Shown: positions 15,833 to 63,656, numbered from the stretch's first letter. The stretch is DNA of 64,000 nt from Patescibacteria group bacterium (GCA_022574205.1 JACZSL010000002.1:11965-75964), one strand, 5' to 3'. Notes: a model not told the origin generated them from the letters alone. Program-made: numbers and translations.

Positions 15833-16042
15833 GATTTTTCTTAGATTTTGTTAGTGAACGGAGTGAGCTTAGAAAATCTTAGACCCCGCACTATTTTTGC
15901 TGTTAATTTACCTCGCAACATGCGTGCGCGAATAGCGCATCCCTTTATGGGCGAAGCGTGTTGCTTGAATGTATTCAGTTCTGGGTTGTTAATTAACATA
16001 TATATGTTTTTGTTTTGCAAAAATGGTGCTGGGGTGATTTTG

Positions 16043-16609: not shown

Positions 16610-16614
16610 ATTAG

Positions 16615-17337: not shown

Positions 17338-17353
17338 GTTTTTTTAGCGTAAC

Positions 17354-18001
17354 CTATCTTCGATGTCCTCCTATTGGAGCCTGTACACGCTCAGGACCTT
17401 TGTTTATGAATCGTGCAATGAAATCACTTATGCGAGACTCGAGCGCCTCCGCCTCAAGGCTTCCAAGATCAAAGCTGTCAACATGCCCCCACGCGACAAG
17501 TGCGACGTCGAGATCATTATCTGTCCTTGGTGTAATAATTACTTTTGACGCCGCAAACTCCCGAAGCAACTCCTTATCAGTTTCGGCAATATCAGGTTTG
17601 TACGCGATCCAAATGTCGCCGTGTTCAAGATTATGAACTATTTGTTCATCGGGTACATGTTCGTCAACATCATAAAACCCTGCACGTGCGGTGCTCGCGT
17701 AGTGCGAGCCACTCGAGGGAGGATTTGAGCTGTACGGTGGATGTTCCGACCCCACTTTGATGTGTTGGCGACCGTCTGATGGAAAAGATTCGCTAAAATC
17801 TTCACCTTGTGGCCCGCTCTTTTGTGAAATAACTACAAATCCCCACAAGGAAAGGGCTATAATAATGATTGTAATGCCCCACTTTGTGATTGATTTTTTT
17901 GCAGTTCCGCTCTTAGCTTCTTGTCTCTGCAACCCCCTCTTTTTAATCTGTTGTGCTTTCTTCTCTTTGTAAGAGAGCTCTTGATCTTTTTCTGTTTCCA
18001 T
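17354..18001 (-). CDS. DUF3105 membrane-anchored protein
   Basis: TM anchor; ...SNPPSSGSHY... HNLEHGDIWIAY. Confidence 0.55.
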   Translation of the reverse strand: METEKDQELSYKEKKAQQIKKRGLQRQEAKSGTAKKSITKWGITIIIIALSLWGFVVISQKSGPQGEDFSESFPSDGRQHIKVGSEHPPYSSNPPSSGSHYASTARAGFYDVDEHVPDEQIVHNLEHGDIWIAYKPDIAETDKELLREFAASKVIITPRTDNDLDVALVAWGHVDSFDLGSLEAEALESRISDFIARFINKGPERVQAPIGGHRR

Positions 18002-18017
18002 ATAACTAAATTAATAC

Positions 18018-40709: not shown

Positions 40710-42461
40710 ATGATTAAATTTGATGAAGAACGGCAAAATAAAAAGCTAGCCCAGCTCCGCCACAGGGAGGAGGAGGATCTTGCTCGCACTCTTTCTGTGA
40801 AATATGGGGTTAAGTATGTCGACCTCTCACGTGTTGCTATTAACACAAACGCACTGATCCACCTTTCAGAGGAAAAGTCCCGAGCCGCTGAGGTTGCTAT
40901 TTTCAATCAAGTAAGTAAAAAGTTGTCTATTGCTGTGCGATCGCCTAAAAAAATTGAGGTGGGTGCTATTGTACAGGGGCTAGAGAAGCGTGGGTACACC
41001 ACAGAACTCTATATGGTTTCTGTGGCAAGTCTCGAGCGAGCGTGGGTAATGTATAAAGAAATCTCGCATGCTGCTGAGGTTAAACGTGGTTCTGTAGATA
41101 TTTCAAGCGATGAACTGCAGTCAACGGTGGCAAAACTTAAAACATTCGAGGATGTGCGGGCGCTTATAAAAGAGGTGTTGAACATGGACAAAGCACATCG
41201 TGTGTCGCGCTTCGTTGAAACAATTCTGGCTGGTGCAATCGCTATTGATGCTTCGGATATACACATCGAACCGGAGGAAAAATATGTTCGTTTGCGTTAT
41301 CGCCTGAATGGCGTGCTCACTGATGTGGTTAATTTTGACATAGATATTTATAATTTAGTACTTTCCCGTATAAAACTCGTCTCTGGCTTAAAACTTAATG
41401 TTAGAGATTCAGCCCAAGATGGTAGGTTTAGTGTGGGCATTGATAATGTTGACACCGAGATTAGAACATCCATACTTCCTGATGCGTATGGAGAAAGTAT
41501 TGTCATGCGTATTTTGAATCCACAGTCAATTAAGATTTCTATTGATGATATTGGAATGAATCCTAAGCTCCTTGCGATTGTCAAAAGAGAGTTAAAAAAA
41601 CCAAACGGCATGATTCTTACAACAGGGCCAACAGGAAGTGGAAAGACAACAACTCTTTACACTTTCCTTTCAAAAATTCACACTTCTGAGATTAAAATAA
41701 TCACTATTGAGGACCCTGTTGAATATCATCTTCCTGGGATTGTGCAAAGTCAGGTAGACGGTAAGGATTATACGTTCGCCACAGGACTTCGAGCGGCACT
41801 TCGACAAGATCCGGACGTAATTATGGTTGGGGAGATTCGTGACGAAGAAGTTGCGAGAACTGCAATACACTCTGCGCTTACTGGTCACCTTGTTCTTTCA
41901 ACACTTCACACAAATACAGCTGCTGGTGCGTTTCCAAGGCTTATTGACTTAGGTGTGGTGCCAAACGTTATAGGTTCTGCGGTCAATATGGTGATGGCAC
42001 AACGACTTGTTCGCACGCTCTGTGAGCACTGTAAGAAAGAGGTGCCTCTACAGGGTGAACAAAAAAAACTTGTTGAGTACATCCTAGGTACTATTGAAAT
42101 TAAAGAGCAAATACCAGAAAAAATAGACACGGTATGGGAACCTGGGCAGTGTAGCAAGTGCAATCACTTGGGGTATGGAAAGCGTGTAAGTATTTATGAA
42201 GCTATTCTTATGGACAAAAAGATTGAGCAAGCGGTTGAAAGAAAAGCAAGTGAGCGCGAGATAGCAGAAATTGCTAGGAGTCAAGGTATTCTCACGCTTC
42301 GACAAGACGGTATTCTGAAAGTCATTCGTGGCATAACTTCCATAAGAGAGCTTGGACGTGTGGTATCTCTTAATGATAGTATTGACCAAGCTGAGCTTGA
42401 TAAGGTCTTTGAAGAGAGGGTAGCGGAAAATCCGATCCATAACCCTCTAAGCAACACTTGA
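40710..42461 (+). CDS. pilB: Type IV pilus assembly ATPase PilB (GspE family)
   Basis: N-terminal GspE_N-like domain; Walker A ILTTGPTGSGKTTTLY; Asp and His boxes; tetracysteine CEHC...CSKC. Confidence 0.9.
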   Translation: MIKFDEERQNKKLAQLRHREEEDLARTLSVKYGVKYVDLSRVAINTNALIHLSEEKSRAAEVAIFNQVSKKLSIAVRSPKKIEVGAIVQGLEKRGYTTELYMVSVASLERAWVMYKEISHAAEVKRGSVDISSDELQSTVAKLKTFEDVRALIKEVLNMDKAHRVSRFVETILAGAIAIDASDIHIEPEEKYVRLRYRLNGVLTDVVNFDIDIYNLVLSRIKLVSGLKLNVRDSAQDGRFSVGIDNVDTEIRTSILPDAYGESIVMRILNPQSIKISIDDIGMNPKLLAIVKRELKKPNGMILTTGPTGSGKTTTLYTFLSKIHTSEIKIITIEDPVEYHLPGIVQSQVDGKDYTFATGLRAALRQDPDVIMVGEIRDEEVARTAIHSALTGHLVLSTLHTNTAAGAFPRLIDLGVVPNVIGSAVNMVMAQRLVRTLCEHCKKEVPLQGEQKKLVEYILGTIEIKEQIPEKIDTVWEPGQCSKCNHLGYGKRVSIYEAILMDKKIEQAVERKASEREIAEIARSQGILTLRQDGILKVIRGITSIRELGRVVSLNDSIDQAELDKVFEERVAENPIHNPLSNT

Positions 42462-46378: not shown

Positions 46379-48580
46379 ATGCGACGTAATAGAAAGCGGG
46401 TTCGTGCTCACATAAATGGCTTTTTTAGGAATATTCTCCTTTTGGGTTTTGTTGGGGGTTTTTTTCTTGCTGGAGCGTTTCTTTTGTGGGCATCTACTTT
46501 AAAAATCCCAGATCTTGACAGTCTCTACCAAAGAAAGGTCGCCCAATCTACTAAAATTTACGACCGCACTGGGGAAATTCTACTTTTTAATGTTCATGAA
46601 GATATACGTAGGACAATTGTTCCTTTAAGTGATATTTCTAGAAACATAGAAAATGCGACTATCGCGATAGAGGATGTAGAGTTTTATGAGCACCGGGGTG
46701 TTAAACCGCAAGCAATTCTTCGTGCGTTATTTGTAAATATTGGTGAGTTGAATTTTAGTCAAGGTGGATCAACGATTACACAGCAAGTGGTAAAAAATTC
46801 GATTTTAACAAAAGAGAAAAAACTTTCCCGTAAACTAAAAGAGTTGATTTTAGCTCTTAAGGTTGAACAGCAGTTAACAAAAGAACAAATTTTAGAGCTA
46901 TATCTAAATGAAACACCTTATGGTGGAAGTGTGTATGGTGTTGAAGAAGCAAGTAAGACCTTTTTTGGGAAATCATCAAGTGATGTAACGCTTGCAGAAG
47001 CTGCGTTTCTTGCGGCACTCCCAAAAGCTCCAACATTTTATTCTCCATACGGAAATAATCGCGACGAATTGGAGGAGCGTAAAAATCTTGTGCTTGAGAG
47101 AATGTTTAATAACGGCTTTATTTCGCGTGGAGAATATGAATTTGCACAAAAAGAGCAGATAGAATTTCAAGGGCAGGCTGTTTTAGGAATAAGAGCTCCA
47201 CATTTTGTTATGTTTGTACGTGAGTATTTATCTAGGACTTATGGCGATCGTGCTATTGAAGAGCGTGGTTTTAGGGTTATAACAACGTTAGATTATGAAC
47301 TACAAGAAAAGGGTGAGGAGATTGTTGCGCGCTTTGTTGAAACAAACGTTGAAAACTTCAACGCGTCGAATGCTGGTCTCGTTGCGGTTGATCCAAAAAC
47401 TGGACAGATTCTAGTAATGGTTGGGTCTAGAAACTATTTTGATGAAGAGATTGATGGAAATTTTAATATAACACTTGCAGAACGTCAGCCAGGATCAGCG
47501 TTTAAGCCATTCGTTTACGCAACAGCGTTATTTAAAGGATACACAACAGAAACTGTAGTGTTTGATACACAAACACAATTCTCAACACTATGTGACTTTG
47601 ATGACTTAGAAAATGAAAATACGGAGTGTTATTCGCCTAGAAATTATGATAATATATTTCGCGGTCCGGTAACTTTTCGTGATGCGCTTGCACAATCCAT
47701 TAATGTACCGTCTGTAAAAGTGTTGTATCTTGCTGGGATACAAGATTCCATTAAAACAGCGAGTAGTATGGGTATTACAACATTAAGTGATGCAGGTCGG
47801 TATGGGCTAACTCTTGTGCTTGGTGGTGGTGAAGTAACTCTTCTTGATATGACAAGTGCATATGGTGTTTTTGCGAATGAAGGGAAAAGAAATCCATATG
47901 TAGGTATTCTTCGTATAGAGGATAGTAATGGTGTTGTTGTTGAAGAATTTTCACACAACCCAATAAAAGTGATATCAGAGGAAGTTGCTCTTCGGATATC
48001 TGATATTCTTTCGGATAATAAAGCGCGTACACCGGCATTTGGTAGTCGATCGGATTTATATTTTCCAGGATACGATGTTGCTGTTAAAACAGGGACAACA
48101 AATGATTCTCGCGACGCATGGATTATTGGATATTCTCCAACAATTGCTGTTGGAGCGTGGGCTGGAAATAACGACAATTCACCTATGGAAAAGAAAGTTG
48201 CTGGGTTTATTATTGCGCCATTGTGGAATGCTTTTATGCAGGAAATATTAGTTAAGGTACCAAACGAGCGTTTTAGATCTGCACCACAGGAATATAATGA
48301 AAATATAAAACCAGTATTACGGGGTGTGTGGGAAGGTGGAGATTTATACTTTATAGATGATAGAACTGGAAGTCCTGCGACAGAAAACACACCTATGGAG
48401 AACATGAAAGAAATTATAGTAAAGAATGTACACTCAATACTCTACTGGGTAGATAAAAATGACCCTCGTGGGGAGAAACCAGATAGCCCAGAAGATAGTT
48501 CACAGTTTAATGCTTGGGAGTATGGGGTTTTTGAGTGGAAAAAAACCAACGGTATTGTTGATGATGTATTACCTTATTAG
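46379..48580 (+). CDS. Class A penicillin-binding protein (glycosyltransferase plus transpeptidase)
   Basis: GT51 motifs IEDVEFYEHRGV and GGSTITQQVVKN; transpeptidase SAFKPFVYATAL, SxN, KTGT. Confidence 0.9.
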   Translation: MRRNRKRVRAHINGFFRNILLLGFVGGFFLAGAFLLWASTLKIPDLDSLYQRKVAQSTKIYDRTGEILLFNVHEDIRRTIVPLSDISRNIENATIAIEDVEFYEHRGVKPQAILRALFVNIGELNFSQGGSTITQQVVKNSILTKEKKLSRKLKELILALKVEQQLTKEQILELYLNETPYGGSVYGVEEASKTFFGKSSSDVTLAEAAFLAALPKAPTFYSPYGNNRDELEERKNLVLERMFNNGFISRGEYEFAQKEQIEFQGQAVLGIRAPHFVMFVREYLSRTYGDRAIEERGFRVITTLDYELQEKGEEIVARFVETNVENFNASNAGLVAVDPKTGQILVMVGSRNYFDEEIDGNFNITLAERQPGSAFKPFVYATALFKGYTTETVVFDTQTQFSTLCDFDDLENENTECYSPRNYDNIFRGPVTFRDALAQSINVPSVKVLYLAGIQDSIKTASSMGITTLSDAGRYGLTLVLGGGEVTLLDMTSAYGVFANEGKRNPYVGILRIEDSNGVVVEEFSHNPIKVISEEVALRISDILSDNKARTPAFGSRSDLYFPGYDVAVKTGTTNDSRDAWIIGYSPTIAVGAWAGNNDNSPMEKKVAGFIIAPLWNAFMQEILVKVPNERFRSAPQEYNENIKPVLRGVWEGGDLYFIDDRTGSPATENTPMENMKEIIVKNVHSILYWVDKNDPRGEKPDSPEDSSQFNAWEYGVFEWKKTNGIVDDVLPY

Positions 48581-48587
48581 TATTGTT

Positions 48588-48857
48588 CTATAAAACATTT
48601 TTAATAAATTCCTTTTTTTTGCTAAGTTTTTTGTTTAATCGTCTGATAATGTCTTGTTTATTTAGATATATTTCGTGTTTTAGTGTTGGATGGGTTTTAA
48701 TATAAAGAATGTTTCTAGTTATTGAAATGTTTTTAGTAGAAATTGCATTGTTGAATATTTCTTTTATAACTTCACAAAAGGCCTCTTTAATAATTTTATC
48801 CCTTGGTGTTGCGAGTGTGTACTTGCGTAAAATATCCTTAATTTTACTTAAGCCCAT
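48588..48857 (-). CDS. DUF721/DciA-like small protein downstream of dnaN
   Basis: Position after dnaA-dnaN; basic C-terminus; size typical of DUF721. Confidence 0.4.
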   Translation of the reverse strand: MGLSKIKDILRKYTLATPRDKIIKEAFCEVIKEIFNNAISTKNISITRNILYIKTHPTLKHEIYLNKQDIIRRLNKKLSKKKEFIKNVL

Positions 48858-48858
48858 A

Positions 48859-49962
48859 TTACTTATTCATTGGCATAACAAGATAAAGGTATGATGGGTC
48901 GCTCACACCTTCCATAACCATTGGTTTCCCAAGGCCACTAAAAGACAGGGAAACACTATCTGATGGGATAATTTGTAGTGCGTCAGTAATATATCGGTGA
49001 TTAAAGTTAATATCTAAATCTTCTCCATCAACAGCTGCTTGGAGTTGTTCTGTTGTCTCTCCTACATCTTGATTACTTGAAGTTAGGGTACATTTTCTTT
49101 GTTTTGATGAAATATGAAAACAAACCTGATTAAACTTATCAGAGAAAATATTTATTTTCTTTAAACTATTAATAAGGTCTTGTTTTAGTGTAATAATTTT
49201 TGTTGTGACTTTTTTAGGAATAATTTGGTGGTAATCTGGGTAAATACCGTCAATTAGCCTTGATGTTATGTATATGTTGTCAGATGAGAAAGATATTTGA
49301 TTTTTAGTAAAAGTTACTATAACTTCTCCAATATTTGAGTGTTCTAGTGCTTTTATTATTTCTGGTATGTTTTTAATAGGTATAATAAGTGGGTTAAAAT
49401 TTGGAACATTTTTATTTATTATAACTTTCTCAGATAGACGGAATGAGTCTGTTGCTGTAAATGTTATTTTTTTGTTTTGTATAGATATATATACACTTGC
49501 AAGTTCTGGTTTAATTGATAAGTTGGATGAACTAAACCATACTGAATTTAGGCCATTAAGAAAATCCTTAATGTCTATTGTAAATGAATTATTACTTTTA
49601 ACTTTAGGTAGTAATGGAAAATCTTCATGTGGTAGTGATTTTATAAGTGTTGAACTTGTGTGTGTTATTATTGAAAGGTTGTCATTTTTACTTAATAATT
49701 TAATTGATACACCATTATATATAGAATTTATAACGTTATAAAAAACTGAACCAGAAACTGCCATTATACCATCTTCTATTATTTTTGCTGGAATATTAAC
49801 TTCAACACCTAAATCAAGATTTGTTGCTTTTAGTTTTAAACTTGATCCTTTTGCCTCTATTAAAATACATCCAAGAACAGGAAGATTAAGATTTTTTCCA
49901 ACAGCCCTTTCAACAATATAAATATTATCAACGAGATTTTCTTTTAAACATTCAACCTTCAT
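48859..49962 (-). CDS. dnaN: DNA polymerase III beta sliding clamp
   Basis: MKVECLKENLVDNIYIVERAVGKNLNLPVLGCILIEA... three-domain clamp. Confidence 0.9.
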   Translation of the reverse strand: MKVECLKENLVDNIYIVERAVGKNLNLPVLGCILIEAKGSSLKLKATNLDLGVEVNIPAKIIEDGIMAVSGSVFYNVINSIYNGVSIKLLSKNDNLSIITHTSSTLIKSLPHEDFPLLPKVKSNNSFTIDIKDFLNGLNSVWFSSSNLSIKPELASVYISIQNKKITFTATDSFRLSEKVIINKNVPNFNPLIIPIKNIPEIIKALEHSNIGEVIVTFTKNQISFSSDNIYITSRLIDGIYPDYHQIIPKKVTTKIITLKQDLINSLKKINIFSDKFNQVCFHISSKQRKCTLTSSNQDVGETTEQLQAAVDGEDLDINFNHRYITDALQIIPSDSVSLSFSGLGKPMVMEGVSDPSYLYLVMPMNK

Positions 49963-50179
49963 ATTCTATATATTATTTATTTTTACTATTAACACTGTGT
50001 ATATGTATAAAACTTAATAAACCCTTATAATAAGCTCTTTTCTAAAACATCTACATAAACAACATGTGATTAACTTATAATAATATGTGGACTATTTTAC
50101 ATTAAATAAACTAAAATACATTTTTACACCAACTTATTAACAAATCATCCACATAATAAAATACGTTTTCCACAAATTG
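49963..50179. promoter_or_regulatory. Candidate oriC segment / DnaA-box cluster in the AT-rich dnaA-dnaN intergenic region
   Basis: tcatccaca (50145-50153) and ttttccaca (50166-50174) are each 8/9 to TTATCCACA; tgtggacta (50087-50095); region about 80% AT. Confidence 0.4.
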
Positions 50180-51538
50180 TTATTTTAGAATCATACGAAT
50201 TTGATTTATTTCCTGTTCAAGAACACTATCAACTTTTAAATTTTTTCTAATTTTTTCACATGAATGTATAACTGTTGTGTGATCTCTACCACCAAGTTTT
50301 TGTCCAATACTCGGATAAGAAATACCAAAATCTTCCCGTAAAATATACATAATAAGCTGACGAGGCTTAACTATTTCTTTCCGTCGAGTTTTCTCATAAA
50401 TATTTTGCTCAGTAATATCATAAAATTCCGCAATTTTCCTCACAACTTCCTTTGCAGATATAAGTTTTTTTGTTCTTGTATTATTTTTTATTAAGCTTTC
50501 AATTTCAGGAAGTGTTAGGGTTGTATCTTGAAGTTGAGATTGACATATAATAGTGTTAAGTGCTCCCTCAAGATCACGAATATTCCCTTGTATTGTTGAA
50601 GCAAGGTAGTCAATAATTTTATCTGAAAGTAATAAATTATTATGTAGTGCTTTAGATTTTAAAATAGCAACACGCGAGTCGTGATCTGGGGCTGGTATAT
50701 CAACAATCATACCAGCGCCAAAACGGCTCTTCAGACGACTTTCAAGATCTGGGATATAGTTTGGGTGCTTATCTGATGTTAATATAATCTGTTTATTATT
50801 ATCATAAAGAGCATTAAATAGATGAAAAAGCTCCTCCTGAGTCTTTTCCTTCTTAGAAAGAAATTGAATATCGTCCATAATAAGAACATCATACTGACGA
50901 TACTTCTCTTTAAACACATTAACTTTAGCCTCCTGAACAGCGTTCACATAATCAACAGTAAATTTCTCACTCGTTAAATAGAATACTTTTCTAGCAGGAT
51001 TTATTTTCTTTAATTGATTACCAACAGCTTGTGCAAGGTGTGTTTTTCCATGACCTGTTGGACTATAAAGAAAAAGAGGATTATATGCAATTCCAGGTTT
51101 TTTAATAACAGCCTGGCTTGCTGCATGAGCCAACTCATTAAATGAACCAACAACAAAATTTTCAAATGTATATCGTGGATTTAAATTATCATTTTTATTG
51201 ATATAAAAATCCTTAAGTGGTAACTCATATGTTGGTGTTGGTTTTTTAGCCACACCACCAACCAACTCCTTTATCACACTATTATCACGATTTTTTACAA
51301 TATTATATTCAAGTCCACGAACCCCGTCAGAAAAACCCCTAAGTGTTTTAAGAATAAATCTATGATATTTTTGCACCATCCAATCCTTAACAAACTGGTT
51401 CGGCACACCAAGGAAAATAACCCCACTCTCCTGTTTAATAATGTACGTATCCTTAAACCATGTGCTGAAATTTGCTCGTGATATATTAAGTTCAATATCA
51501 ACAAGTGTATTTTCCCATAATTGTTTATTACCAAGCAT
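50180..51538 (-). CDS. dnaA: Chromosomal replication initiator DnaA
   Basis: LFLYSPTGHGKTHLAQAVGN (Walker A); C-terminal HTH ...GGRDHTTVIHSCEKI... Confidence 0.95.
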   Translation of the reverse strand: MLGNKQLWENTLVDIELNISRANFSTWFKDTYIIKQESGVIFLGVPNQFVKDWMVQKYHRFILKTLRGFSDGVRGLEYNIVKNRDNSVIKELVGGVAKKPTPTYELPLKDFYINKNDNLNPRYTFENFVVGSFNELAHAASQAVIKKPGIAYNPLFLYSPTGHGKTHLAQAVGNQLKKINPARKVFYLTSEKFTVDYVNAVQEAKVNVFKEKYRQYDVLIMDDIQFLSKKEKTQEELFHLFNALYDNNKQIILTSDKHPNYIPDLESRLKSRFGAGMIVDIPAPDHDSRVAILKSKALHNNLLLSDKIIDYLASTIQGNIRDLEGALNTIICQSQLQDTTLTLPEIESLIKNNTRTKKLISAKEVVRKIAEFYDITEQNIYEKTRRKEIVKPRQLIMYILREDFGISYPSIGQKLGGRDHTTVIHSCEKIRKNLKVDSVLEQEINQIRMILK

Positions 51539-51723
51539 GTGGTGAAATGTAATGCTAATAAGCCGAATAAGATATGTATGATTATCAAATTATACTCTTC
51601 TCGTGGAAAAGTAAATCTTGAAAAACTTGAATAAGTATGTTAATAAAATGTGCATAAGACATAATTGTTACTGTACTAAATAAAAGTAGTCAGGCTTTAA
51701 TTATTCTGTTATAATGTTAAATA
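51539..51723. promoter_or_regulatory. Divergent dnaA/rpmH promoter region with DnaA-box-like sites (second oriC candidate)
   Basis: tgtgcataa (51649-51657) is 8/9 to TGTGGATAA; cgtggaaaa; AT-rich. Confidence 0.35.
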
Positions 51724-51858
51724 ATGTCTATTACATACAAACCAAAGAGGCGAAAAAGGGCTAAAACTCACGGTTTTTTAAGCCGCAAAAAGACACCAGG
51801 TGGACGTAAAGTCCTTAAAAGACGAGCACGAAAAGGAAGAACGCACTTGTCTGTGTAG
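51724..51858 (+). CDS. rpmH: Ribosomal protein L34 (44 aa; below the ORF-track cutoff)
   Basis: Manual translation [44 protein letters not shown]. Confidence 0.9.
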
Positions 51859-51890
51859 AATTATGCCTGTGTATAACACACTCTAGAATT

Positions 51891-52220
51891 GTGAATAAAA
51901 GAAAACCGGTAACTAGAAAAATTTTCGACCGCATTTTAAAAACCGGAAAAACATACCATCAACCACTATTTAGTTTTCACACACTACACACACTTGAAAA
52001 TGTATACAGGATTGTGTGTGTTGTACCAAAGAGCACGGAAAAGTCTGCTGTTGTTAGAAACAAGTTACGACGTCGTTGTTACTATGCGATTTATAAACTA
52101 CTCAACAATAATAAGTATTTTTTAGCAATCCTATTTATTAAATCAGGCGCGAAACGCCTTCCATATAAATTATTTGAGGAAAAGATAGCCGTTCTTCTCA
52201 AAAGATCCGGCATACTGTAA
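51891..52220 (+). CDS. rnpA: RNase P protein component
   Basis: Basic protein ...VVRNKLRRRCYYAIYKLL...; canonical rpmH-rnpA order. Confidence 0.85.
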   Translation: MNKRKPVTRKIFDRILKTGKTYHQPLFSFHTLHTLENVYRIVCVVPKSTEKSAVVRNKLRRRCYYAIYKLLNNNKYFLAILFIKSGAKRLPYKLFEEKIAVLLKRSGIL

Positions 52221-52331
52221 ACACTTACCACCGCATCAATAATTACAACACCACATTAACTGCACGTAAAGAACATTTGTAAAATACATCAAAACTTGAA
52301 CCTTAATACAAACTACGCTAGGATTATGTGA

Positions 52332-53706: not shown

Positions 53707-54966
53707 CTATTTACCTAAGCGCAGGCTCCAAAGAGAGGAGTCTCTTTTGTTTATGAAAAAGAGGTATTCTCCAGACTCACTTACAGCAAGATTAACCATA
53801 TCAATAGTGAAATCTCTCTCTTGCCTAAGGTCAACGAGCAGGCGTGTAACATCTCTCGACACATCAATTTCCCAAATACTGTCGGAGAAAGAAATTTTTC
53901 CCTGATACCAACTATCAGGGTATAAGTCCTCTGAAACCACGAATGGCACACCACAGTAGACAATATTCCTATTAACGGGGCTCCACCCACACTTTTCTGG
54001 GAGTGTTTTAACAGAGAATAAACGCATATCGCGCGTTTTTAGTTCGAATAAGAAAAGACCAAAATCACCACTAGTGCTTTTAGACAATAGAATACGGTCT
54101 CCATACGGGCTTGTGTTTACTGTTAATCCCAAAATACCATCCAGGAGCTTTTCTGGAACAGCACCACCCCCCTCCTCAAGAGAGTATACTAAGCCAGCTA
54201 CTAGACCAGAAGCTTTTGTGGTAAAGAAGATTTTTCCACTATTTGTTATCTCGTAGAGGAGTTCGTGGAGGAATGAACGATATACCGTTTCCACACCAGA
54301 GCCGTTGAAAGAAGATTTTTTAAGCAAAGTCTCGCGATCTCCACGAATAGTATAGAAAATATTTTCACCAACATCATCAGTTGTGAAGAAATCTATGTCA
54401 TCCGGAAGAAAACGTCCATCGATCGTAGAGACAGACGTGCCACTAACAATGTGAGCATTAAACGTCTTTATAACATCGTTTTCATCCAGATAACGAAGTA
54501 CAACCCGTGTAGCATTTTTATTCCAAATCGCCTCATAAACACCTGGAATTGTGGTGTTTGTAACGCGTACAGACTCAATTTTTTCCGGATCAACTTGGTA
54601 TATATTCCCTGTTATACGCTCAACGAAGCGCACAGACGGAGCTCCGTCGCTTGTTGTTGTGGCAACAAATCCAGCCACAGGTGTTGTTGTTAGTTGCTGT
54701 AGCACACTTTCTCCAAACTGACGCCTTTTTAACACAAGATTATCATCAAAACCAAAACCAACAAACCCACCCTCATTTTCAAATGTGAGTGGTGGGCGCT
54801 CTTCGTCTAAACCAAGTACAGAATCATCAGAAAAGAGACCACCAAAAAAACCAACATTTTCTTGACTATCGCCAGATGACCCCCCACCATCCCTTTGTAT
54901 TAGAAAAAACCAACCCAAAATTCCAAGGATCAATGTGATAATAAATATAATTAGTATTTTTTTCAT
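53707..54966 (-). CDS. hypothetical membrane-anchored extracellular protein (first listed gene of the T4SS-like cluster region)
   Basis: Start moved to MKKILIIFIITLIL (TM anchor); Gly/Ser-rich linker; beta-rich body. Confidence 0.4.
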   Translation of the reverse strand: MKKILIIFIITLILGILGWFFLIQRDGGGSSGDSQENVGFFGGLFSDDSVLGLDEERPPLTFENEGGFVGFGFDDNLVLKRRQFGESVLQQLTTTPVAGFVATTTSDGAPSVRFVERITGNIYQVDPEKIESVRVTNTTIPGVYEAIWNKNATRVVLRYLDENDVIKTFNAHIVSGTSVSTIDGRFLPDDIDFFTTDDVGENIFYTIRGDRETLLKKSSFNGSGVETVYRSFLHELLYEITNSGKIFFTTKASGLVAGLVYSLEEGGGAVPEKLLDGILGLTVNTSPYGDRILLSKSTSGDFGLFLFELKTRDMRLFSVKTLPEKCGWSPVNRNIVYCGVPFVVSEDLYPDSWYQGKISFSDSIWEIDVSRDVTRLLVDLRQERDFTIDMVNLAVSESGEYLFFINKRDSSLWSLRLGK

Positions 54967-55007: not shown

Positions 55008-55919
55008 TTAGCCGCCAGCACCAGGACGATAGCACGGGGTGGCCGACACAAACAACGGTCTCGAGGACGCGTCTCTCCGTGCTTGTTCACAAAGCAGAGA
55101 ATCGTTAACAGGTACGGGACACTGCTGTTGTGTTAGACGTCTGTCGTCAGACCCCACCGACGTAGTGATATCATAACAAAATTCCCTACCTATTCCTCTA
55201 GAGCCGTCGGCTGTCGAGAAGCACCCTTCTTCTATACCATAAGAGATAAAAACTTGTCTTGGACGGGCCTTATACTCTTCTTCCCCAGCAAGGCATTGTT
55301 CCAAGGTAGTCCATATGGTTTCTTCACCAGAAAAAAATCCAAAACTACCACATTCTATATCAGCAAATCCACCAGCATCGTCGCCAACAAAACAAAAACC
55401 TTGATCTATTATTACTCTGTTGGCATATCCTGTCAGCGCCGCGGCTTCCTCAGCACGACTACGATCATCAAGTTCTATTCCAGAAACTACACCACCAACC
55501 TTGTCTTGAAGTGTGCCAAAAAAGTCGAAACTAAGAATCTTTGGGTTAATTGTTTGCAGAACCAGAACGGAAAGAAGAACAATTAGGAGTCCCCCAAACA
55601 CACCAGTCATACATTTTTTCGCCGCCTCTTTTGAGCTTATTGCTTCGCTCATCATATACTGAAAACCACAAATCATTAACTTGATTACTGCAAGAACTGC
55701 AATTATAGAAATGAAAAGAACAAAAATATTGTTAAAATATTGCACCAATCCGGAAGGACCCCCAGTATTCACAGAACTCCCAACACCAGGAAGCGGGGAA
55801 ATAGGCGTATACGATTGCGCAAACACAGTGTCTACAAACAACAACATTAGAATACAACACAACGCAAACGTTAATATGTAAGTGGTTTGTGCGGACTTGA
55901 ATTTACTTGGAAAAAACAT
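55008..55919 (-). CDS. VirB2/TrbC-like pilin candidate with a ~170-aa Cys-rich C-terminal domain
   Basis: Signal peptide (…VFA|QS), two hydrophobic helices separated by a short charged loop (LVQYFNNIFVLFISIIAVLAVIKLMICG / MTGVFGGLLIVLLSVLVL), then a domain with ≥9 Cys. Confidence 0.35.
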   Translation of the reverse strand: MFFPSKFKSAQTTYILTFALCCILMLLFVDTVFAQSYTPISPLPGVGSSVNTGGPSGLVQYFNNIFVLFISIIAVLAVIKLMICGFQYMMSEAISSKEAAKKCMTGVFGGLLIVLLSVLVLQTINPKILSFDFFGTLQDKVGGVVSGIELDDRSRAEEAAALTGYANRVIIDQGFCFVGDDAGGFADIECGSFGFFSGEETIWTTLEQCLAGEEEYKARPRQVFISYGIEEGCFSTADGSRGIGREFCYDITTSVGSDDRRLTQQQCPVPVNDSLLCEQARRDASSRPLFVSATPCYRPGAGG

Positions 55920-56965
55920 TATTCAAATAAAACATTAAACGAGGTCTCCGCTTCTTGCAAAACTTTAAACGGAAGGTTGTTGTTTATTACTTTTAATAAT
56001 ACCTCTGCCTGACCCGTTTCTACACCCTCACGACGAAACGTAATTTCGTTTCCCTGTTCTTCTCTGGGGATATCAATATCTTTTCTGTCTACACGCCATC
56101 TATAATTTAATAGCCTCCCAAAAACATCCTCAAGGGAAAAGAAATAAGGTTCTGCGCGAAAAACAACTTCGTCTTCTGTAAAATTATACAAACCCTTTAT
56201 TACAGAACCGTACACCACACCCTCAAGAGGCCGCTTTTCATAGATTAGAATCTCTTGTGCGTATACCGGGACAACAGCAGTACTCTGCGCGCGCACAGAG
56301 CCATTTGGTGACGAAACGGAAACAGACACAATAAGCGGCACTTCACGAAGAATCTCGTTTTGGAGCACAATACTTTGCCTGCCAACTCCGGACGCTTTCC
56401 CCAAAACAACACCGCTCTGACTCCACGTATAAACAAGCTTTTTTGGATCTATCTTCTTTCCGGCACTATCTGCAATTTCAGGCATAGCAACAAACGTTAT
56501 TAGACCCGCGGACGGAGCAAGAGCTTTCCCTCTATAAAAAGGGGGTGTATACGAGAATGCTTCCCATACAAGATTTATTTCACTAGGAATTACCTCAACC
56601 TCACGAACAAAAAGTTCTCCTTTATCCGTTTCGATCACAACACTCACCCTACTGGAACTTCCAAGTCCTCGTGTGGTGAAACGAGCACGACTCTCCCCAA
56701 CACCAACAAGCCGCACAGTTCCGTTTAGTGTCCACGTTATATTAGAAAGTCCCAGATCAATCGTTTCACTTTCCAAAGTAACAACAACCATTTCGTATAA
56801 CCCCGGGGTTTTTGGTGAGAGAGTTATGGATATTGAGCCAGTTGCCGCTTGCGCATGCGTCTCTAAGGCAAGCATGAGCACAAAAAGTAAGCTAAAAACC
56901 ACAATAACCGCCACACAATAGACTCGAATTGGATTATATGTATTAATCGGGAGAATATGTTTCAT
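55919..56965 (-). CDS. hypothetical secreted protein
   Basis: N-terminal signal/TM; beta-rich; start overlaps the upstream stop (operon packing). Confidence 0.4.
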   Translation of the reverse strand: MKHILPINTYNPIRVYCVAVIVVFSLLFVLMLALETHAQAATGSISITLSPKTPGLYEMVVVTLESETIDLGLSNITWTLNGTVRLVGVGESRARFTTRGLGSSSRVSVVIETDKGELFVREVEVIPSEINLVWEAFSYTPPFYRGKALAPSAGLITFVAMPEIADSAGKKIDPKKLVYTWSQSGVVLGKASGVGRQSIVLQNEILREVPLIVSVSVSSPNGSVRAQSTAVVPVYAQEILIYEKRPLEGVVYGSVIKGLYNFTEDEVVFRAEPYFFSLEDVFGRLLNYRWRVDRKDIDIPREEQGNEITFRREGVETGQAEVLLKVINNNLPFKVLQEAETSFNVLFE

Positions 56966-56976
56966 AGAATAATATA

Positions 56977-57555
56977 CTATATACCTTGTACAAAAGCATT
57001 AAAACCAGCTTTCTTGCTTGCCATTTTTCTAAAGCGTTCATTATTCTCTAGGACGCGCACTAACACAAGACTTACGGACGCCATGGGGAGTATTCCTGTG
57101 AAAGGCAGAATCTCGAGAACCATACTTACAACGAAAACTACAAGTTTGCGTGAGGTGAGTTTAACGTCATTCATCATATAATATATAAGGAGAGTAAACG
57201 TAATCATCAGACCAAAAATCACACTAAAAATGATTAAAATAACCGAAAACGTAAACACAATATCTAACATATCTTTCAACAACGTAAGAAACAACATCGC
57301 TATAAATAAAGGGCCGGTTAATTTTTTTTGTGATTGTTGCGGTTTTCTTTGTTTCTCCGCTTCACGTCCTTTTCGTTTTTTCAGTCTTTGTTGCGCGATA
57401 CGCGCAACCTTTTCAGCACCCACAACCATTGCCTCCACACTCGCCTGCTCAGGGGCTCTCTGCGCCGCACGCGCAGGTCTGTGCATTGAACCGTAAGCAG
57501 CTGCTCGCGTCCCGATTCTTCGAACCCTTTGCAAATTTTCATTTTTATCTGCCAT
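56977..57555 (-). CDS. hypothetical membrane protein (basic N-terminus plus 3-4 TM)
   Basis: Composition and hydropathy only. Confidence 0.35.
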   Translation of the reverse strand: MADKNENLQRVRRIGTRAAAYGSMHRPARAAQRAPEQASVEAMVVGAEKVARIAQQRLKKRKGREAEKQRKPQQSQKKLTGPLFIAMLFLTLLKDMLDIVFTFSVILIIFSVIFGLMITFTLLIYYMMNDVKLTSRKLVVFVVSMVLEILPFTGILPMASVSLVLVRVLENNERFRKMASKKAGFNAFVQGI

Positions 57556-57556
57556 A

Positions 57557-59401
57557 TTACTTATCTATATTTTGTGGTGCGTTTTGAGCGTCCCCATGTT
57601 CTGCTTTCAGCTCCTCTTTAGCTTTTTTAATAGCAAGCAGTTGTGATGGGTCTGAGGTAATAATCTGGTCTTCAGTGTACGAGGCAATAATCTTAATTGC
57701 GACGTGTTTCAGCCCGGCAAAGAAGATTCCCTCACCCACACCACTCTCAAGTAAAAGATATTTTTCCTCATCAGTCAAATGGAATGTTTTTTGGAGTAAG
57801 TCAACAGATGTTGGAGACTGTTTCATAAGAAGCTGAATCGAGGAGTTTGTAAGCATCGGTGTTCCGTACGGACTTCGTAAGAAGTCCTCAACGTCTTGAG
57901 TAATAGTCGCAAGGCCAAGATAATATTTTCTTCCGCGTTTCGCCATACTATAAAGGAAACTTGCGGTATCTTCTGATTTCATCATCCACCACGCCTCGTC
58001 AATAACTAAAAGTCTTTTACGAAGATCACGCCTCACCGCGTTCCAGATAAAGTGTGTCACGATATACATCGCAATACTTTTGAGGTCATCCTCCATATCT
58101 CGTACTGAAAAAACAACGAATTTTTTATTAATATCAACATTGGTTGGCCTATTAATAAAGTCAGACCACGAGCCTTTAGTATATTTCTCAAGACGCTGAA
58201 CCAGACTTTCAGCCCCCTCCATTCCAGCAAGCACAAGCTCGAAATCGGACAGTAAAGGAGGCTCAACCCCTTCAAAATTCGAATCAGCAGTAATATCTTT
58301 CAAAGCATATGTTTCCGTGATTGCACGGTCCACAATAGAATCTTCCTCAGGAGTAAGACCACCAAACATCATACGAAATAGACCAACAAGATTTATTACC
58401 TGTGAGCGAAGTACATCAGTAGGAGCTTCGTCCTCTCGAGGTATTGGTAAATCAAATGGGTTAATGTGGTGTTCCGAAGAAAGGGAAATTTTAAAGTATC
58501 TTCCACCGGTTGCATTCGAAAGATACTCGTATTCACGCTCTGGGTCAATTACGATGACGTCAATATCGAACATAAGCGATCTCAGAATCTCAAGCTTCAT
58601 TGCATAACTCTTGCCAGAACCACTTTTTGCGAACACCACAGAGTTGTAATTCTCAAGAGAAAAACGATCAAAGAGCACTAAACCGGAATTATGCCTGTTC
58701 ACTCCGTATAGAATTCCTCGATCTGAAGTTAAGTCAAATGAAATAAACGGAAAAATACTAGAAAGCGGAGACGAATTCAATTTAGAGTGAACGCTTAAAA
58801 GATCGATCCCAAGGGGGATAACACTCATAAAACCCTGTTCTTGTTGGAAAAGCGCAGGCTTTATGTAAATAAGTTTCGAGTCAAGAAGTCCTTTTAGCTC
58901 CGACTCCAACTTGTCTAGATCTTCAGTCGAATTTCCATATATAGTTATATATACACCAACATCAAACAATTTTTCCTTCGCCTGCATAAGATCATCACGT
59001 AATTGCTCTAGGTCTTGATGCGCGGTATCAAGTTTTGGATCGCGAACAAGACCTTTATCCTGCCGCATATGGATCTGACTTTGCACTTCAGCAACTTTTT
59101 TCTGAAAACGTTTTAAGGCAACTGTTGTATCAACAGGGTGTATAAAAATCGAAATGTCTATCACACGATCAAGATTTATCACAGGAGAGAACCAGCTTTG
59201 GTTTAGAAATCTTGGATATGAAATAACAAAGAAAGTGCGGGCTATTTTCTCACCCAAATGAAGCTCGCGTGGCGACACCCTAAGCGCACTAGGAGCAATA
59301 ACATCTTTCAACTGAAGCACTCCGGCTTCATAAATTTGTTGAGGCAACACCGGTGCGCCCATCCCTTTCTTTTTTGGTTTAAATATATCTAAGAGACCCA
59401 T
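57557..59401 (-). CDS. virB4: VirB4/TrbE/CagE-family type IV secretion ATPase
   Basis: N-terminal ...LGEKIARTFFVISYPRFLNQSWFSPVINL..SIFIHP; Walker A VVFAKSGSGKSYAMK; Walker B/arginine-finger region LLVIDEAWWMM...GRKYYLGLATITQ. Confidence 0.85.
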   Translation of the reverse strand: MGLLDIFKPKKKGMGAPVLPQQIYEAGVLQLKDVIAPSALRVSPRELHLGEKIARTFFVISYPRFLNQSWFSPVINLDRVIDISIFIHPVDTTVALKRFQKKVAEVQSQIHMRQDKGLVRDPKLDTAHQDLEQLRDDLMQAKEKLFDVGVYITIYGNSTEDLDKLESELKGLLDSKLIYIKPALFQQEQGFMSVIPLGIDLLSVHSKLNSSPLSSIFPFISFDLTSDRGILYGVNRHNSGLVLFDRFSLENYNSVVFAKSGSGKSYAMKLEILRSLMFDIDVIVIDPEREYEYLSNATGGRYFKISLSSEHHINPFDLPIPREDEAPTDVLRSQVINLVGLFRMMFGGLTPEEDSIVDRAITETYALKDITADSNFEGVEPPLLSDFELVLAGMEGAESLVQRLEKYTKGSWSDFINRPTNVDINKKFVVFSVRDMEDDLKSIAMYIVTHFIWNAVRRDLRKRLLVIDEAWWMMKSEDTASFLYSMAKRGRKYYLGLATITQDVEDFLRSPYGTPMLTNSSIQLLMKQSPTSVDLLQKTFHLTDEEKYLLLESGVGEGIFFAGLKHVAIKIIASYTEDQIITSDPSQLLAIKKAKEELKAEHGDAQNAPQNIDK

Positions 59402-59650: not shown

Positions 59651-60313
59651 CTATTTTTCAAGTGGAATTGGTTTTGATAACTCACCAGGGTTAAAGAGCC
59701 TGTAAAATAATTCAATAATTTCTTCCGTGCCGAGACTTACAACCCGAATACCTGTTCGAGCAAGACCCTGCTCTACAACCGACACCCTCTGCTCTATTTG
59801 AGAACGGCTTTTCTCGAAAGCCACGGCTTTAGCCTCACTTTTTGTTTTCTTCCCCTCCCCTTTTTTCTCTACAAGTTCGAGTAGAGAAAACAGTCCTTTT
59901 TTTGCCTGCACAACAGAAGCAGAATATGGAATTACAATAAAAAAGTGTTTTGACATAATATTTGTATCTTCCACAAACTTCTTCACGAACTCAATATATT
60001 CACGTGTCTGGATCTGCATTAAATCATTTGTTTGCGCCTTATACCGCTCTTCAAGGAGCGCGATATAAGGGCGAATATCAAGATCGCGTGACTGAATGAA
60101 GATCTGCACCGGAAACTCAAGGGAATTAAGAAAGTTTTGGAATTGGGAAAGAATTGCTTCTTGCTCGTCGGCACCTTTAAGCGCAAAGTTTAATGAACTC
60201 GTCATAACTATAGCTCGCATCGAACCATCTTTCAGTATTACGATTCCATCACGCACCTCTTCAATTGGTACGAAGTCCTGTGTCGCCCTTGCATCTTTAA
60301 TTGATATTGCCAT
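59651..60313 (-). CDS. hypothetical soluble T4SS-cluster protein (weak resemblance to VirB4 N-terminal domain)
   Basis: ...DFVPIEEVRDGIVILKDGSMRAIVMTSSLNFALKGADEQEAILSQFQNFLNSL...; no TM. Confidence 0.3.
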   Translation of the reverse strand: MAISIKDARATQDFVPIEEVRDGIVILKDGSMRAIVMTSSLNFALKGADEQEAILSQFQNFLNSLEFPVQIFIQSRDLDIRPYIALLEERYKAQTNDLMQIQTREYIEFVKKFVEDTNIMSKHFFIVIPYSASVVQAKKGLFSLLELVEKKGEGKKTKSEAKAVAFEKSRSQIEQRVSVVEQGLARTGIRVVSLGTEEIIELFYRLFNPGELSKPIPLEK

Positions 60314-60731
60314 CGTCCTGTTTGTTATTAATATCTAAACTCTCTTGAATATCTAAACTCCATGATAAATCTTTTAATTTACTGTCAGAAAGCCTTGGAA
60401 CAAACAAACCGAGATCCTCCTCCCCTCCCTCATCCCTCTTCTTAATTTTTCGGTCTTGTTTTTTCCACACATATAAGCGTTTTCTTCCGGCATAATGGAA
60501 AGCAGCCTCCAACACTTCTATAAAAGGTCTATCGTTTACCTTATAGAATGCGAGGGCCGCACCAAGAGCAACAATGGGCGCAGCAAGAAGCACAGCGAGC
60601 ACGAGCGGAAGAAATGAATACAAAACAAAAACAATACCGGCTGAGCCGACAATGTAGACAAACTGCTTCACGGTGAGCGGTCCGAAAATTTTATCTTCAA
60701 CATCAATATATTGTGGTACTTGAAAACGCAT
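60297..60731 (-). CDS. PrgI/VirB3-like small membrane protein
   Basis: MRFQVPQYIDVEDKIFGPLTVKQFVYIVGSAGIVFVLY... two TM; PrgI-family N-terminal pattern; overlaps neighbouring genes. Confidence 0.5.
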   Translation of the reverse strand: MRFQVPQYIDVEDKIFGPLTVKQFVYIVGSAGIVFVLYSFLPLVLAVLLAAPIVALGAALAFYKVNDRPFIEVLEAAFHYAGRKRLYVWKKQDRKIKKRDEGGEEDLGLFVPRLSDSKLKDLSWSLDIQESLDINNKQDDGNIN

Positions 60732-61754: not shown

Positions 61755-63656
61755 CTAGGTGTCTTTGCCCGTGTCTATTGGATTTTTAGCAAAATAATCC
61801 TTCAAACCATCATCGATGCCTTTTTCCTTTCTTTTTATGCTTTTTCTTTGCGCTTTAAGTTCTTTGATTTCGTTATCAAGCAATGTCAGATCTTTCTCTT
61901 TCTCACTTAGGACTTTCTGTGCATTATCCAGTTCGTATTGAATCTCGTTAGCATTTGAGTGATTTCCATCAGAGCGCGCTTGAATGTAAGCTTTTCTTTT
62001 TGTGTCAACATCCTGCTCAGCTTTGGATTTAGCGTCTTTCTTGTCTTTATAATCTTCTTTTGTTTTAAAGTCGTCGATTTGTTTTACAATCCCCCTGTTA
62101 TGCTCTCTTTCTTTTAATTTCCCTATCTTTTGCGCCGCTTCTTTGTCTCTACGAGAAGTCCACAGTCCTAAACGAGATGGAGACTTTTTATCTCTCAAAT
62201 TTTCGGCATATTTTTCCCTTTCTGTGTCTGTCATACCTAAGCTATCAGCAAATTTCTCATCTTTCTTTGTTTTATCATCCATCTTTTTTGCAAAACCTCC
62301 TTTTCCTCCACCCTTAACCCCCTTAATTCCAACAAGCCCTAGCGCTTTTGATACCCCTTTTACATTTCTTATATCTCCACTTGACCCCGCAATACCCTGA
62401 AAAGCTTTTAATTGCACTCTAGCAAATCTGCCACCTTCAGCCGCGCGTTTTTGCAAACTTTCATTTTGAGCCACTCTACTCGCTATCCGTCCGGCAGTTT
62501 GTCTATAAGCAAGAGCTGCTGCTCCAGCTCCTCCAGCTCCCACAGCAACTCCCACAGCAACCCCACCTTTCGCAAATCTTTTGGTAATTTTTGCAGCTGT
62601 AGCACCCGCTTCTCCAGCCGCAGCCTTGGCAATGTTAAGCGCGGCAATCAAAAGACCAATGATTATGGCAAAATTCATTAATATTCCGGCAGATTCAGAA
62701 AGCAACGAGTTATTATTCTTCCCCACACCAGAGCTTATTGCGGTTCCTAACTCTTGTTCAGGCGTAATCCAGCCAGCGAGAAAATTAGCGTCCAGAGTGA
62801 TAACCATAATCGCCGCTATTAGTACAAGAAATACAGGAACCACCAAGACATTTCCGATAAGCGCCGCAACCCACTTTTTCCAAAACGCCTGAGCTGCGCC
62901 GGTAGGAAGAATTGCCGCGACAAAAGCAACAGGGGAAGCAATAAGAACAATAATAAGAACAACCGTCCTCTGTACGAAAAGAAGTCCAGCTGATAAAAAT
63001 ACAAACCCGGAAATAAGAAGAAAGATTGTTCCCATAAGGTAAAAAGTAAACGTTTTCCGCGCTTCAATTTCTACACCTTCGTAGATGGAAGATGTTTTCA
63101 AGCTTGTAGACAATATCTCACCAATCGATGCCTTTCTTGTTAAGGTCCCCGAGTCGGTTGTAACCGTAACTTCAGGCGTAAGTGTTTCATAAATAAAACT
63201 CCCCGTTATATTTCCAGCATCAATCACCGCGCCAGTTAGGAAAAAACTAAAGTTTACAAGAAGTGCCGCTATAATAACATGAGTCACCAACCGCTTTGTT
63301 TGTACCCCGCCAATCTGAAGCACTGTCATGAAAGCGATGTAAAGGAGAATAAAAATGAATGCCATATTGGCAAGGTCGCGAAACACTTCCCATCCAACCC
63401 TTATCCCGCCAAGCTGATAGAATGAAGAATCAAGCGTTACTCGGAGAGCTATATCAAGGAAAGCCGCTCCAGCGCCGGAAATCCAACTACCGAACGTAAG
63501 CATAGCATCGCCAACAGCTTCTATTACGTCATTATGTACGATAGCGTAAACTGGTTCCGGCGTAAAAAATCCTCCAAAAGAAAGACTTAAAATAAGAACA
63601 ATAAACACTTTCGCAAGAGCCTTTTGTGCTTTTGTGCTTTTTTGAAAAATGTACAT
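61755..63656 (-). CDS. VirB6/TrbL-like polytopic membrane protein with a long charged C-terminal tail
   Basis: Signal/TM, then ≥6 TM helices, Gly/Ala-rich segment, ~200-aa Lys/Glu-rich coiled-coil tail. Confidence 0.6.
   Translation of the reverse strand: MYIFQKSTKAQKALAKVFIVLILSLSFGGFFTPEPVYAIVHNDVIEAVGDAMLTFGSWISGAGAAFLDIALRVTLDSSFYQLGGIRVGWEVFRDLANMAFIFILLYIAFMTVLQIGGVQTKRLVTHVIIAALLVNFSFFLTGAVIDAGNITGSFIYETLTPEVTVTTDSGTLTRKASIGEILSTSLKTSSIYEGVEIEARKTFTFYLMGTIFLLISGFVFLSAGLLFVQRTVVLIIVLIASPVAFVAAILPTGAAQAFWKKWVAALIGNVLVVPVFLVLIAAIMVITLDANFLAGWITPEQELGTAISSGVGKNNNSLLSESAGILMNFAIIIGLLIAALNIAKAAAGEAGATAAKITKRFAKGGVAVGVAVGAGGAGAAALAYRQTAGRIASRVAQNESLQKRAAEGGRFARVQLKAFQGIAGSSGDIRNVKGVSKALGLVGIKGVKGGGKGGFAKKMDDKTKKDEKFADSLGMTDTEREKYAENLRDKKSPSRLGLWTSRRDKEAAQKIGKLKEREHNRGIVKQIDDFKTKEDYKDKKDAKSKAEQDVDTKRKAYIQARSDGNHSNANEIQYELDNAQKVLSEKEKDLTLLDNEIKELKAQRKSIKRKEKGIDDGLKDYFAKNPIDTGKDT

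Follow-up and report, generated by a model that had tools for sequence, protein, structure and literature searches.

A VirB2-like pilin of a Patescibacteria type IV secretion system extended by a variable, cysteine-rich C-terminal domain

A 64,000-nucleotide stretch of DNA from a Patescibacteria group bacterium (GCA_022574205.1, JACZSL010000002.1:11965-75964; hereafter the window) encodes, on its minus strand at 55008..55919, a 303-amino-acid precursor in which a VirB2-like type IV secretion system (T4SS) pilin is continued into a C-terminal cysteine-rich domain, referred to here as the head. At the family level the product is firmly a member of the Patescibacteria VirB2-like T4SS pilins (PF18895) over residues 1-135, judged by its sequence, the architecture of its core and its context. 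The fusion is retained in independent assemblies, and the head is the fast-evolving, exchangeable, mosaic part of the pilin. The reading favoured here, in which our confidence is about even, is that this gene supplies the pilin for a chromosomal, origin-proximal T4SS of Patescibacteria, and that a VirB2-like core of about 100 residues carries a surface-exposed C-terminal head that would serve in host or partner recognition.

The open reading frame (ORF) given in the original prediction was exact, and it is conserved. Its stop codon lies at 55008-55010, its ATG shares 1 nt with the stop codon of the gene upstream, and the ENA gene call (P0078) is identical, at 303 amino acids. The NCBI record MCH8888958.1 (IID26_00845, ‘Patescibacteria group bacterium’) is the same protein with its start placed at Met25; Met1 is the better start because homologues keep the longer N-terminus with its lysine-containing n-region. 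Hydropathy identified three hydrophobic stretches (13-34, 58-90 and 105-124), and an AlphaFold2 model built from a 22-sequence alignment (mean predicted local distance difference test, pLDDT, of 67) placed helices at the signal peptide (5-34) and in the pilin (55-90 and 97-124). The signal peptide (residues 1-34; 55818..55919), assigned from hydropathy and from the N-terminus kept in homologues, has an n-region with K6 and K8 and a hydrophobic core at 13-30; it is probably cut near Ala34, between VFA and QS, a site read from the sequence and not with a dedicated predictor. The mature N-terminus bears the motif Y-T-P-I-S-P-L-P-G (residues 37-45; 55785..55811), the columns of which are invariant or nearly so and which is present in distant loci too. 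Pilin helix 1 (residues 55-90; 55650..55757) contains the clade-specific Cys84, and is followed by a short, positively charged loop, SEAISSKEAAKKCM (residues 91-104; 55608..55649), with three lysines among its 14 residues and Cys103. By analogy with the orientation in solved pili, this loop is predicted to face the cytoplasm as long as the protein is membrane-inserted, and the lumen once it is part of a pilus (PMC11722321). The hydrophobic core of helix 2 (residues 105-124; 55548..55607) terminates in the family motif VLQTINP. The AlphaFold2 model and the homologue alignment together define a flexible linker (residues 125-170; 55410..55547), the equivalent of which is glycine-rich in homologues, and the head follows as module 1 (residues 171-240; 55200..55409) and module 2 (residues 241-303; 55011..55199). 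All of these features are on the minus strand.

Membership of the pilin family was assessed with several profiles. The Pfam T4SS_pilin model PF18895 matched residues 58-122 (E 9e-5, 22.9 bits), and matched 21 of 22 relatives at E <= 0.01; precomputed PF18895 assignments were also present on the orthologues P0011, P0014, P0015, P0018 and P0022. The Pfam TrbC/VirB2 model PF04956 scored 15.7 bits (E 0.017), under its gathering score of 27.9, and gave weak matches in four of the 22 relatives (best E 3e-5). A hidden Markov model (HMM) was made from 53 canonical family members that had been retrieved by a pilin-core profile, 42 of which have Pfam’s own PF18895 assignment, and it recognized the ORF with 114.9 bits (E 1.2e-34). 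A scan with the family HMM returned this one pilin-like ORF from the 64-kb window, and the syntenic loci L007-L009 likewise have a single pilin ORF each. The signal peptide and VirB2/TrbC-type two-helix topology with a charged loop, as originally described, were borne out by hydropathy, AlphaFold2, the three loop lysines, the family HMM and the surrounding T4SS operon, and virB4 and virB3 neighbours, often near dnaA, are a property of the family that the locus shares. Type IV pilus (T4P) pilins are defined by a class III signal peptide (G followed by F/M-x-x-x-E) and a single N-terminal helix; the window protein has an ordinary signal peptide and two helices. A profile search with the whole-protein alignment against the sequences of solved structures returned nothing at E <= 1.

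The window protein departs from the family in its size. Family members are small single-domain precursors of about 90-170 amino acids; the 53 canonical sequences are 86-168 amino acids long (median 134), with tails of 7-58 amino acids that are nearly all free of cysteine (38 measured), whereas the window protein has a 177-amino-acid tail. The fusion is thus unusual for the family, as had been proposed, although both the canonical and the long-tailed samples are biased by the manner of their retrieval and no frequency of long-tailed forms can be derived from them.

Full-length homologues with 45-89% identity were found in independent metagenomes, and these retained the pilin core, the linker and all eight head cysteines; those in L007 and L008 also share the gene order of the window. 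The conservation of a full-length fusion with synteny in independent assemblies excludes a frameshift or assembly artefact. It had been stated at the outset that two adjacent genes split by a frameshift, or a cytoplasmic cysteine-rich part, would undo the idea of a pilin and a cysteine-rich domain in one polypeptide; we give these two explanations next to no weight. Nothing was found in favour of an artefact, and the homologues are uninterrupted. A cytoplasmic tail is at odds with the conserved cysteines, with the positive-inside charges and with the PKD and SLT domains found in the same position of relatives. Both explanations were ruled out by homologue comparison, synteny and charge distribution.

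The slot that the gene occupies was compared between related loci, synteny being common to L007, L008, L009, L012 and L013. Short, ordinary pilins fill it in L012 (141 amino acids) and L013 (134 amino acids), which makes the window protein a positional orthologue of canonical pilins, extended C-terminally. Long-tailed pilins fill the slot in L007, L008, L009, L001 and L002; those of L001 and L002, which are distant, are 346 and 282 amino acids long and have cysteine-containing tails. A scan of GTDB genomes returned six loci, all distant. The pilin in L009 (P0020; 9001-10419) is a 472-amino-acid protein with two PKD domains followed by more cysteine-containing sequence, indicating that very different extracellular domains can fill the tail position.

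Tandem ORFs were also observed on a Saccharibacteria metagenome-assembled genome contig (L003, CAYJDV010000043.1; 74-1867 and 1915-3639), each with a PF18895-like hairpin. Their N-terminal parts of about 270 amino acids are near-identical and their C-terminal parts differ: one ends in an SLT_2 lytic transglycosylase domain (32.8 bits, above cutoff), and the other, which has no family assignment, is metallopeptidase-like by eye. From their sequences, these ORFs appear to be pilin hairpins fused to cell-wall enzymes.

A location of the tail outside the cytoplasmic membrane, with cysteines of the disulfide type, is supported by five lines of evidence: the signal peptide, the charge pattern, the conservation of the cysteines, their even number, and the PKD and SLT_2 domains of relatives. 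The mature N-terminal segment has no lysine or arginine, versus three in the inter-helix loop, i.e., a positive-inside pattern. Even cysteine counts were found in 25 of 27 related tails; of the two exceptions, one lacks cysteine altogether and the other has seven, diverging from the family alignment past the seventh. Domains that are typically extracytoplasmic stand in the same tail position in P0020 (PKD) and L003 (SLT_2). The proposal of a secreted, disulfide-rich tail was therefore upheld. Its cysteine count was not: ‘at least nine’ had been claimed for the domain, and eight were counted (176, 190, 209, 233, 248, 267, 277 and 296). The protein has twelve in total, the remaining four being in the signal peptide (21 and 22), helix 1 (84) and the loop (103).

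The head (residues 171-303) comprises 133 amino acids, with a mass of 14.5 kDa and a pI of 4.3. It is preceded in the AlphaFold2 model by a segment (residues 141-171) with pLDDT below 50 that is predicted to be disordered; both head modules have pLDDT of about 70-88. Module 1, with Cys176, 190, 209 and 233, is predicted to form strand (175-180), strand (185-189), helix (206-218) and strand (229-235). Module 2, with Cys248, 267, 277 and 296, is predicted to form two strands (248-255 and 260-266), a helix (274-285) and two further strands (290-293 and 297-299). Judged from the strand register, the pairs 176-190 and 248-267 probably close hairpins, and 209-233 and 277-296 probably tie each helix to the next strand. 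BLASTP found no similarity between module 1 and module 2, and the idea that the two are related derives from predicted secondary structure and cysteine spacing only. Shorter relatives have one four-cysteine unit with similar spacing (12-18, 6-9 and 15-19 residues), and in P0007 the equivalent of module 2 is the entire tail. Single units in relatives, the P0007 tail and the dissimilarity of the two modules all fit a modular construction.

The head is rare. A head profile searched against 1.84 billion representative proteins recovered its own clade (three clusters) and two weak matches, P0023 and P0024, which are large, repeat-rich proteins (HYR-type-like by eye) and were judged compositional. 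No Pfam or NCBIfam family matched the head. Foldseek returned nothing from the PDB at E <= 0.001, which is a weak structural test given the moderate confidence of the model.

The variation of the head was examined by comparison with a near-identical strain from another sample (L010), over an overlap of 1.6 kb. Most 60-nt windows were 97-100% identical. The exceptions were a patch in the head at 48-68% identity with indels, and two milder dips, of about 90% and about 80%, at contig ends. Within the gene, 61 of 78 differing alignment columns fall inside 156 nt (nt 540-695 of the gene; 55225..55380, minus strand), which correspond to residues ~181-232 of module 1; the cysteines flanking this hypervariable, mosaic patch are retained in L010. 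Between the two versions of the patch there are indels (3 and 15 nt) and every type of substitution, and the simplest reading of the sequences is recombination with a divergent allele.

Diversity-generating retroelements are common in this radiation, and the concentration of variation between near-identical strains in 156 nt is what such an element might produce. We nevertheless regard that origin for the patch as very improbable. A retroelement would act through a template repeat, with adenine-specific changes and without indels, and the patch does not conform to this pattern: it has the 3- and 15-nt indels and mixed substitutions, and no second copy of it, as a template repeat, exists in the 64-kb window (no dedicated reverse-transcriptase search covered the whole of it).

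Over greater distances entire tails have been swapped. The L011 tail is an unrelated single four-cysteine module, although the upstream gene (94% identity) and the pilin core (89%) of L011 are close to those of the window. The cores of P0007, P0010, P0013 and P0014 are 94-98% identical and their tails just 33-49%. In the pair P0005/P0014 the tail (51%) nearly matches the core (67%); the cores of this pair are far more divergent than those within the group of four.

The upstream 348-amino-acid gene showed about 90% identity to L010 beside 100% identical sequence (window 56300-56965; L010 1-180). On this evidence the operon may have another variable segment, less pronounced than the first, inside the gene for the upstream secreted protein.

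As the fast-evolving, exchangeable part, the head would most likely serve in recognition of, or adhesion to, the surface of a partner or host cell; host specificity, or evasion of phages and other antagonists that bind the head, may drive its variation. The tip or adhesin-like role first proposed is a guess at function. In the mechanism that we favour, which draws on the sequence and on what is established for VirB2-type pilins, the precursor would be inserted via Sec/YidC and its signal peptide cleaved near Ala34. The two helices would then lie in the membrane, with the lysine-rich loop cytoplasmic and both termini outside, and outside the cell the tail would fold as a pair of small modules (strand-strand-helix-strand), with two disulfides probably stabilizing each. 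Solved structures of conjugative pili have the positively charged loop of the helix-loop-helix lining the lumen (PMC11722321). Should this core be extracted and polymerised by the T4SS likewise, its loop would face the lumen, which would put the termini, and hence the C-terminal extension, on the outside of the pilus; the linker of about 45 residues would hold the acidic 14.5-kDa head outside every subunit.

The crowding on such a filament was roughly estimated using the C5 symmetry and 13.7 Å rise of the T-pilus (PMC9905601), and a core radius which we take to be about 38 Å. The surface available per subunit was 654 Å^2 at the core and 861 Å^2 at a radius of 50 Å, and the cross-section of the head is ~814 Å^2. 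As the head fits once it is ~12 Å or more beyond a T-pilus-like surface, and the linker has 45 residues, crowding need not prevent a fully decorated filament. A more speculative extension, which we put forward tentatively, is that one lineage of Patescibacteria has a ‘bottle-brush’ T4SS filament in which each VirB2-like subunit would carry an exchangeable, disulfide-locked receptor-binding head on its flexible linker, and in which module swapping and the hypervariable patch would set host range. More generally, the VirB2 hairpin would be a scaffold for display in this radiation, an idea that comes from relatives in which a PKD or lytic transglycosylase domain is joined to it.

A number of points weigh against a displayed, host-recognizing head. 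The structure model is of moderate quality overall, and the head modelled alone was poor (pLDDT 56); the disulfide pairing was taken from secondary-structure register rather than coordinates. No sequence or fold match ties the head to any known adhesin. The PF18895 score of the pilin core falls short of the Pfam gathering score of 26.6, and further pilin genes may lie outside the 64-kb window. To our knowledge, pili have not been demonstrated in this organism or in close relatives of it, the PF18895 family has no member with a pilus structure, and no solved conjugative pilin has a folded domain. C-terminal residues are lost during the maturation of TrbC (27 residues) and TrhA (five residues), so that removal of the head is possible (PMC11722321).

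If such removal occurred, the tail would be a pro-domain or passenger cut in the linker, the core would form a smooth pilus, and the cysteine-rich domain would be degraded or released as a soluble factor. VirB2-type pilins are known to be processed at the C-terminus (PMC11722321), the disordered linker of ~45 residues parts core from head, and the head, a folded unit in its own right, has evolved separately from the core. We nonetheless consider removal unlikely, though worth keeping in view: the segments known to be removed are peptides of 5-27 residues rather than folded disulfide domains, and strain-level diversification would be odd for a discarded segment, although it would suit a released effector. 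No TraF-like maturation peptidase was recognised among the scanned operon proteins, several of which have no family assignment.

It is also possible that no extended pilus is made, and that a monoderm T4SS uses the hairpin as a membrane anchor or as a short channel or stalk element; the head would then be a linker-tethered surface domain that binds receptors or interacts with the wall. Monoderm T4SSs are generally without pili (PMC12102498; PMC12857230), the Saccharibacteria hairpin-SLT_2 fusion makes sense at a cell wall and less so along a filament, and a 14.5-kDa head on each subunit is sterically demanding. On the other hand, the core shows strong conservation and is orthologous by position to the canonical short pilins, the length of the linker makes display on a filament feasible, and the T4SS pilin genes of Southlakia epibionticum, which has the sole Patescibacteria T4SS to have been examined genetically, are essential (PMC10633639). 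With these points set together, we see an anchor as a minority possibility.

Finally, the protein might cap, as a minor or tip pilin, a pilus whose major pilin is a different one encoded elsewhere in the genome, of which the visible portion is 64 kb. Multiple pilin genes or arrays are present in many Patescibacteria (441 arrays across 383 assemblies; PMC12102498). This arrangement appears improbable given that the gene is the sole pilin ORF both in the window and in L007-L009, and that it sits in the slot of the single short pilin of L012 and L013.

The favoured reading, a VirB2-like pilin with a displayed recognition head, can be set beside known systems. With the PF18895 pilins of other Patescibacteria the window protein shares a signal peptide, the motif Y-x-P-[IL]-[SA]-P-[IL]-P-G, two helices, a lysine-rich loop, the VLQTINP end, a VirB3/TrsD/VirB4 operon by dnaA, and the same syntenic slot; it differs in adding the linker, the 133-amino-acid, eight-cysteine, two-module head and a clade-specific pair of hairpin cysteines. 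The locus has a single gene, unlike the pilin array of Southlakia epibionticum (PMC10633639). The VirB2/TrbC/TraA pilins of diderms (PF04956; F, pED208, T, H and RP4 pili) are likewise helix-loop-helix proteins with a positive loop and a long-leader precursor. Their mature forms, however, have ~65-75 residues, some being trimmed or cyclised C-terminally (PMC11722321), whereas the window pilin is extended, belongs to a monoderm host, and has no significant sequence match to solved pilins.

T4P pilins combine a hydrophobic helical stem, which forms the filament core, with a globular, disulfide-containing, variable surface head. The window protein resembles them in this stem-plus-variable-head design principle, but is unrelated in family and machinery, with two helices rather than one and a VirB4 rather than a PilB/PilC operon. 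VirB5-type tip proteins and Gram-positive T4SS adhesins (PrgB) share the proposed role in contact with a target cell; they are separate proteins with other folds, whereas the candidate contact domain of the window is fused to the pilin. Homologues of adhesins, PrgB among them, were not detected in Patescibacteria (PMC12102498).

Patescibacterial VirB2-like pilins have already been described (PMC12102498, PMC10633639), and only the head domain is new. The published surveys consulted cover the pilins, their arrays and their location and do not mention an extra domain or a cysteine-rich tail (PMC12102498, PMC12857230, PMC10633639); the supplement of one gives VirB2 matches without lengths (PMC12102498). 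In the library searched, no paper joined disulfides with Patescibacteria, pilins and T4SS. Much of bacterial diversity belongs to the Patescibacteria, which live on other microbes to which they are attached; in the one species examined genetically, the T4SS and its pilins are required for this way of life (PMC10633639). A variable-headed pilin is a concrete candidate for a host-recognition element of an essential but functionally obscure T4SS; the head is also a possible marker of host range in metagenomes. If the favoured reading is correct, this would be the first natural case known to us of a VirB2-type pilin that displays a folded domain, and would bear on the cargo capacity of conjugative-pilus architecture and on engineered pilus display. 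Were the bottle-brush filament also real, its heads would be for a T4SS what the globular heads of type IV pilins are for their filaments, and head swapping together with the hypervariable patch would shift which host cells the epibionts attach to or inject.

The hairpin of the pilin has a further feature. Cys84, in helix 1, and Cys103, at the start of helix 2, are symmetric about the hairpin loop (84+103 = 90+97; window 55608-55670). Among 83 family sequences, both are present in 21, neither in 62 and one alone in none. All 21 sequences belong to one clade, and the co-occurrence may be a single event. The two cysteines could form a disulfide staple when the loop faces the lumen of a pilus.

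The pilin gene lies in a minus-strand operon with the order 633-amino-acid protein, two small proteins, PrgI/VirB3, TrsD-like, VirB4, 192-amino-acid protein, 348-amino-acid protein, pilin and ~419-amino-acid protein. The 633-amino-acid protein (61755..63656) occupies the VirB6/TrbL-like slot of related loci; this assignment is by position alone, as the family scan gave no match. The PrgI/VirB3-like protein (60297..60731) was assigned by a family match. The 220-amino-acid TrsD/TraC-N-like protein (59651..60313) is a separate N-terminal part of VirB4, and the 614-amino-acid VirB4-like ATPase of the CD1110 family (57557..59401) scored 378.8 bits against a cutoff of 325. The two parts of VirB4 are separated by ~250 nt of apparently non-coding sequence, and related loci have the same split. 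Synteny places a 192-amino-acid membrane protein in the T4SS operon (56977..57555), followed by the 348-amino-acid secreted protein (55919..56965), which is syntenic and translationally coupled to the pilin gene. Downstream of the pilin, the syntenic ~419-amino-acid protein (53707..54966) has an N-terminal transmembrane segment and a weak TolB-like propeller match; its start is likely the ATG at 54966 and not the GTG at 55035.

The genes jag, yidC, dnaA and dnaN lie directly past the T4SS operon. GC content falls to 31% at about 48000-52300, around dnaN (48859-49962) and dnaA (50180-51538) and adjoining yidC and jag. The replication origin presumably lies in this low-GC segment, and the T4SS operon begins ~2 kb off. 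The arrangement agrees with reports of origin-proximal, monoderm-type T4SSs with VirB2-like pilins in Patescibacteria (PMC12102498; PMC12857230).

A Dsb cluster adjacent to the pilin gene had been suggested as a source of disulfides. Dsb-type genes do exist in the window, but are ~38 kb from the pilin gene rather than adjacent to it. The family scan identified, all on the minus strand, a DsbD_TM/CcdA-like gene (14834-15832), a Redoxin/TlpA-like gene with a CPFC motif (16043-16609) and a DsbA-like gene, also with CPFC (16615-17337). These genes (14834-17337) are candidates for supplying the disulfide chemistry. The ORFs scanned in the window included neither a DsbB nor a VKOR to partner the DsbA-like protein.

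The thiol-disulfide cluster (window 14834-19124) continues into DUF3105 and DUF3179 proteins. A PilB/GspE-type ATPase (T2SSE, E 6e-119) is encoded at 40710-42461, which indicates that the window also encodes a system of the type IV pilus or type II secretion kind, distinct from the T4SS. A minus-strand ORF at 1-3513, of >1170 amino acids with 10 cysteines and two CxxC motifs, extends past the window start.

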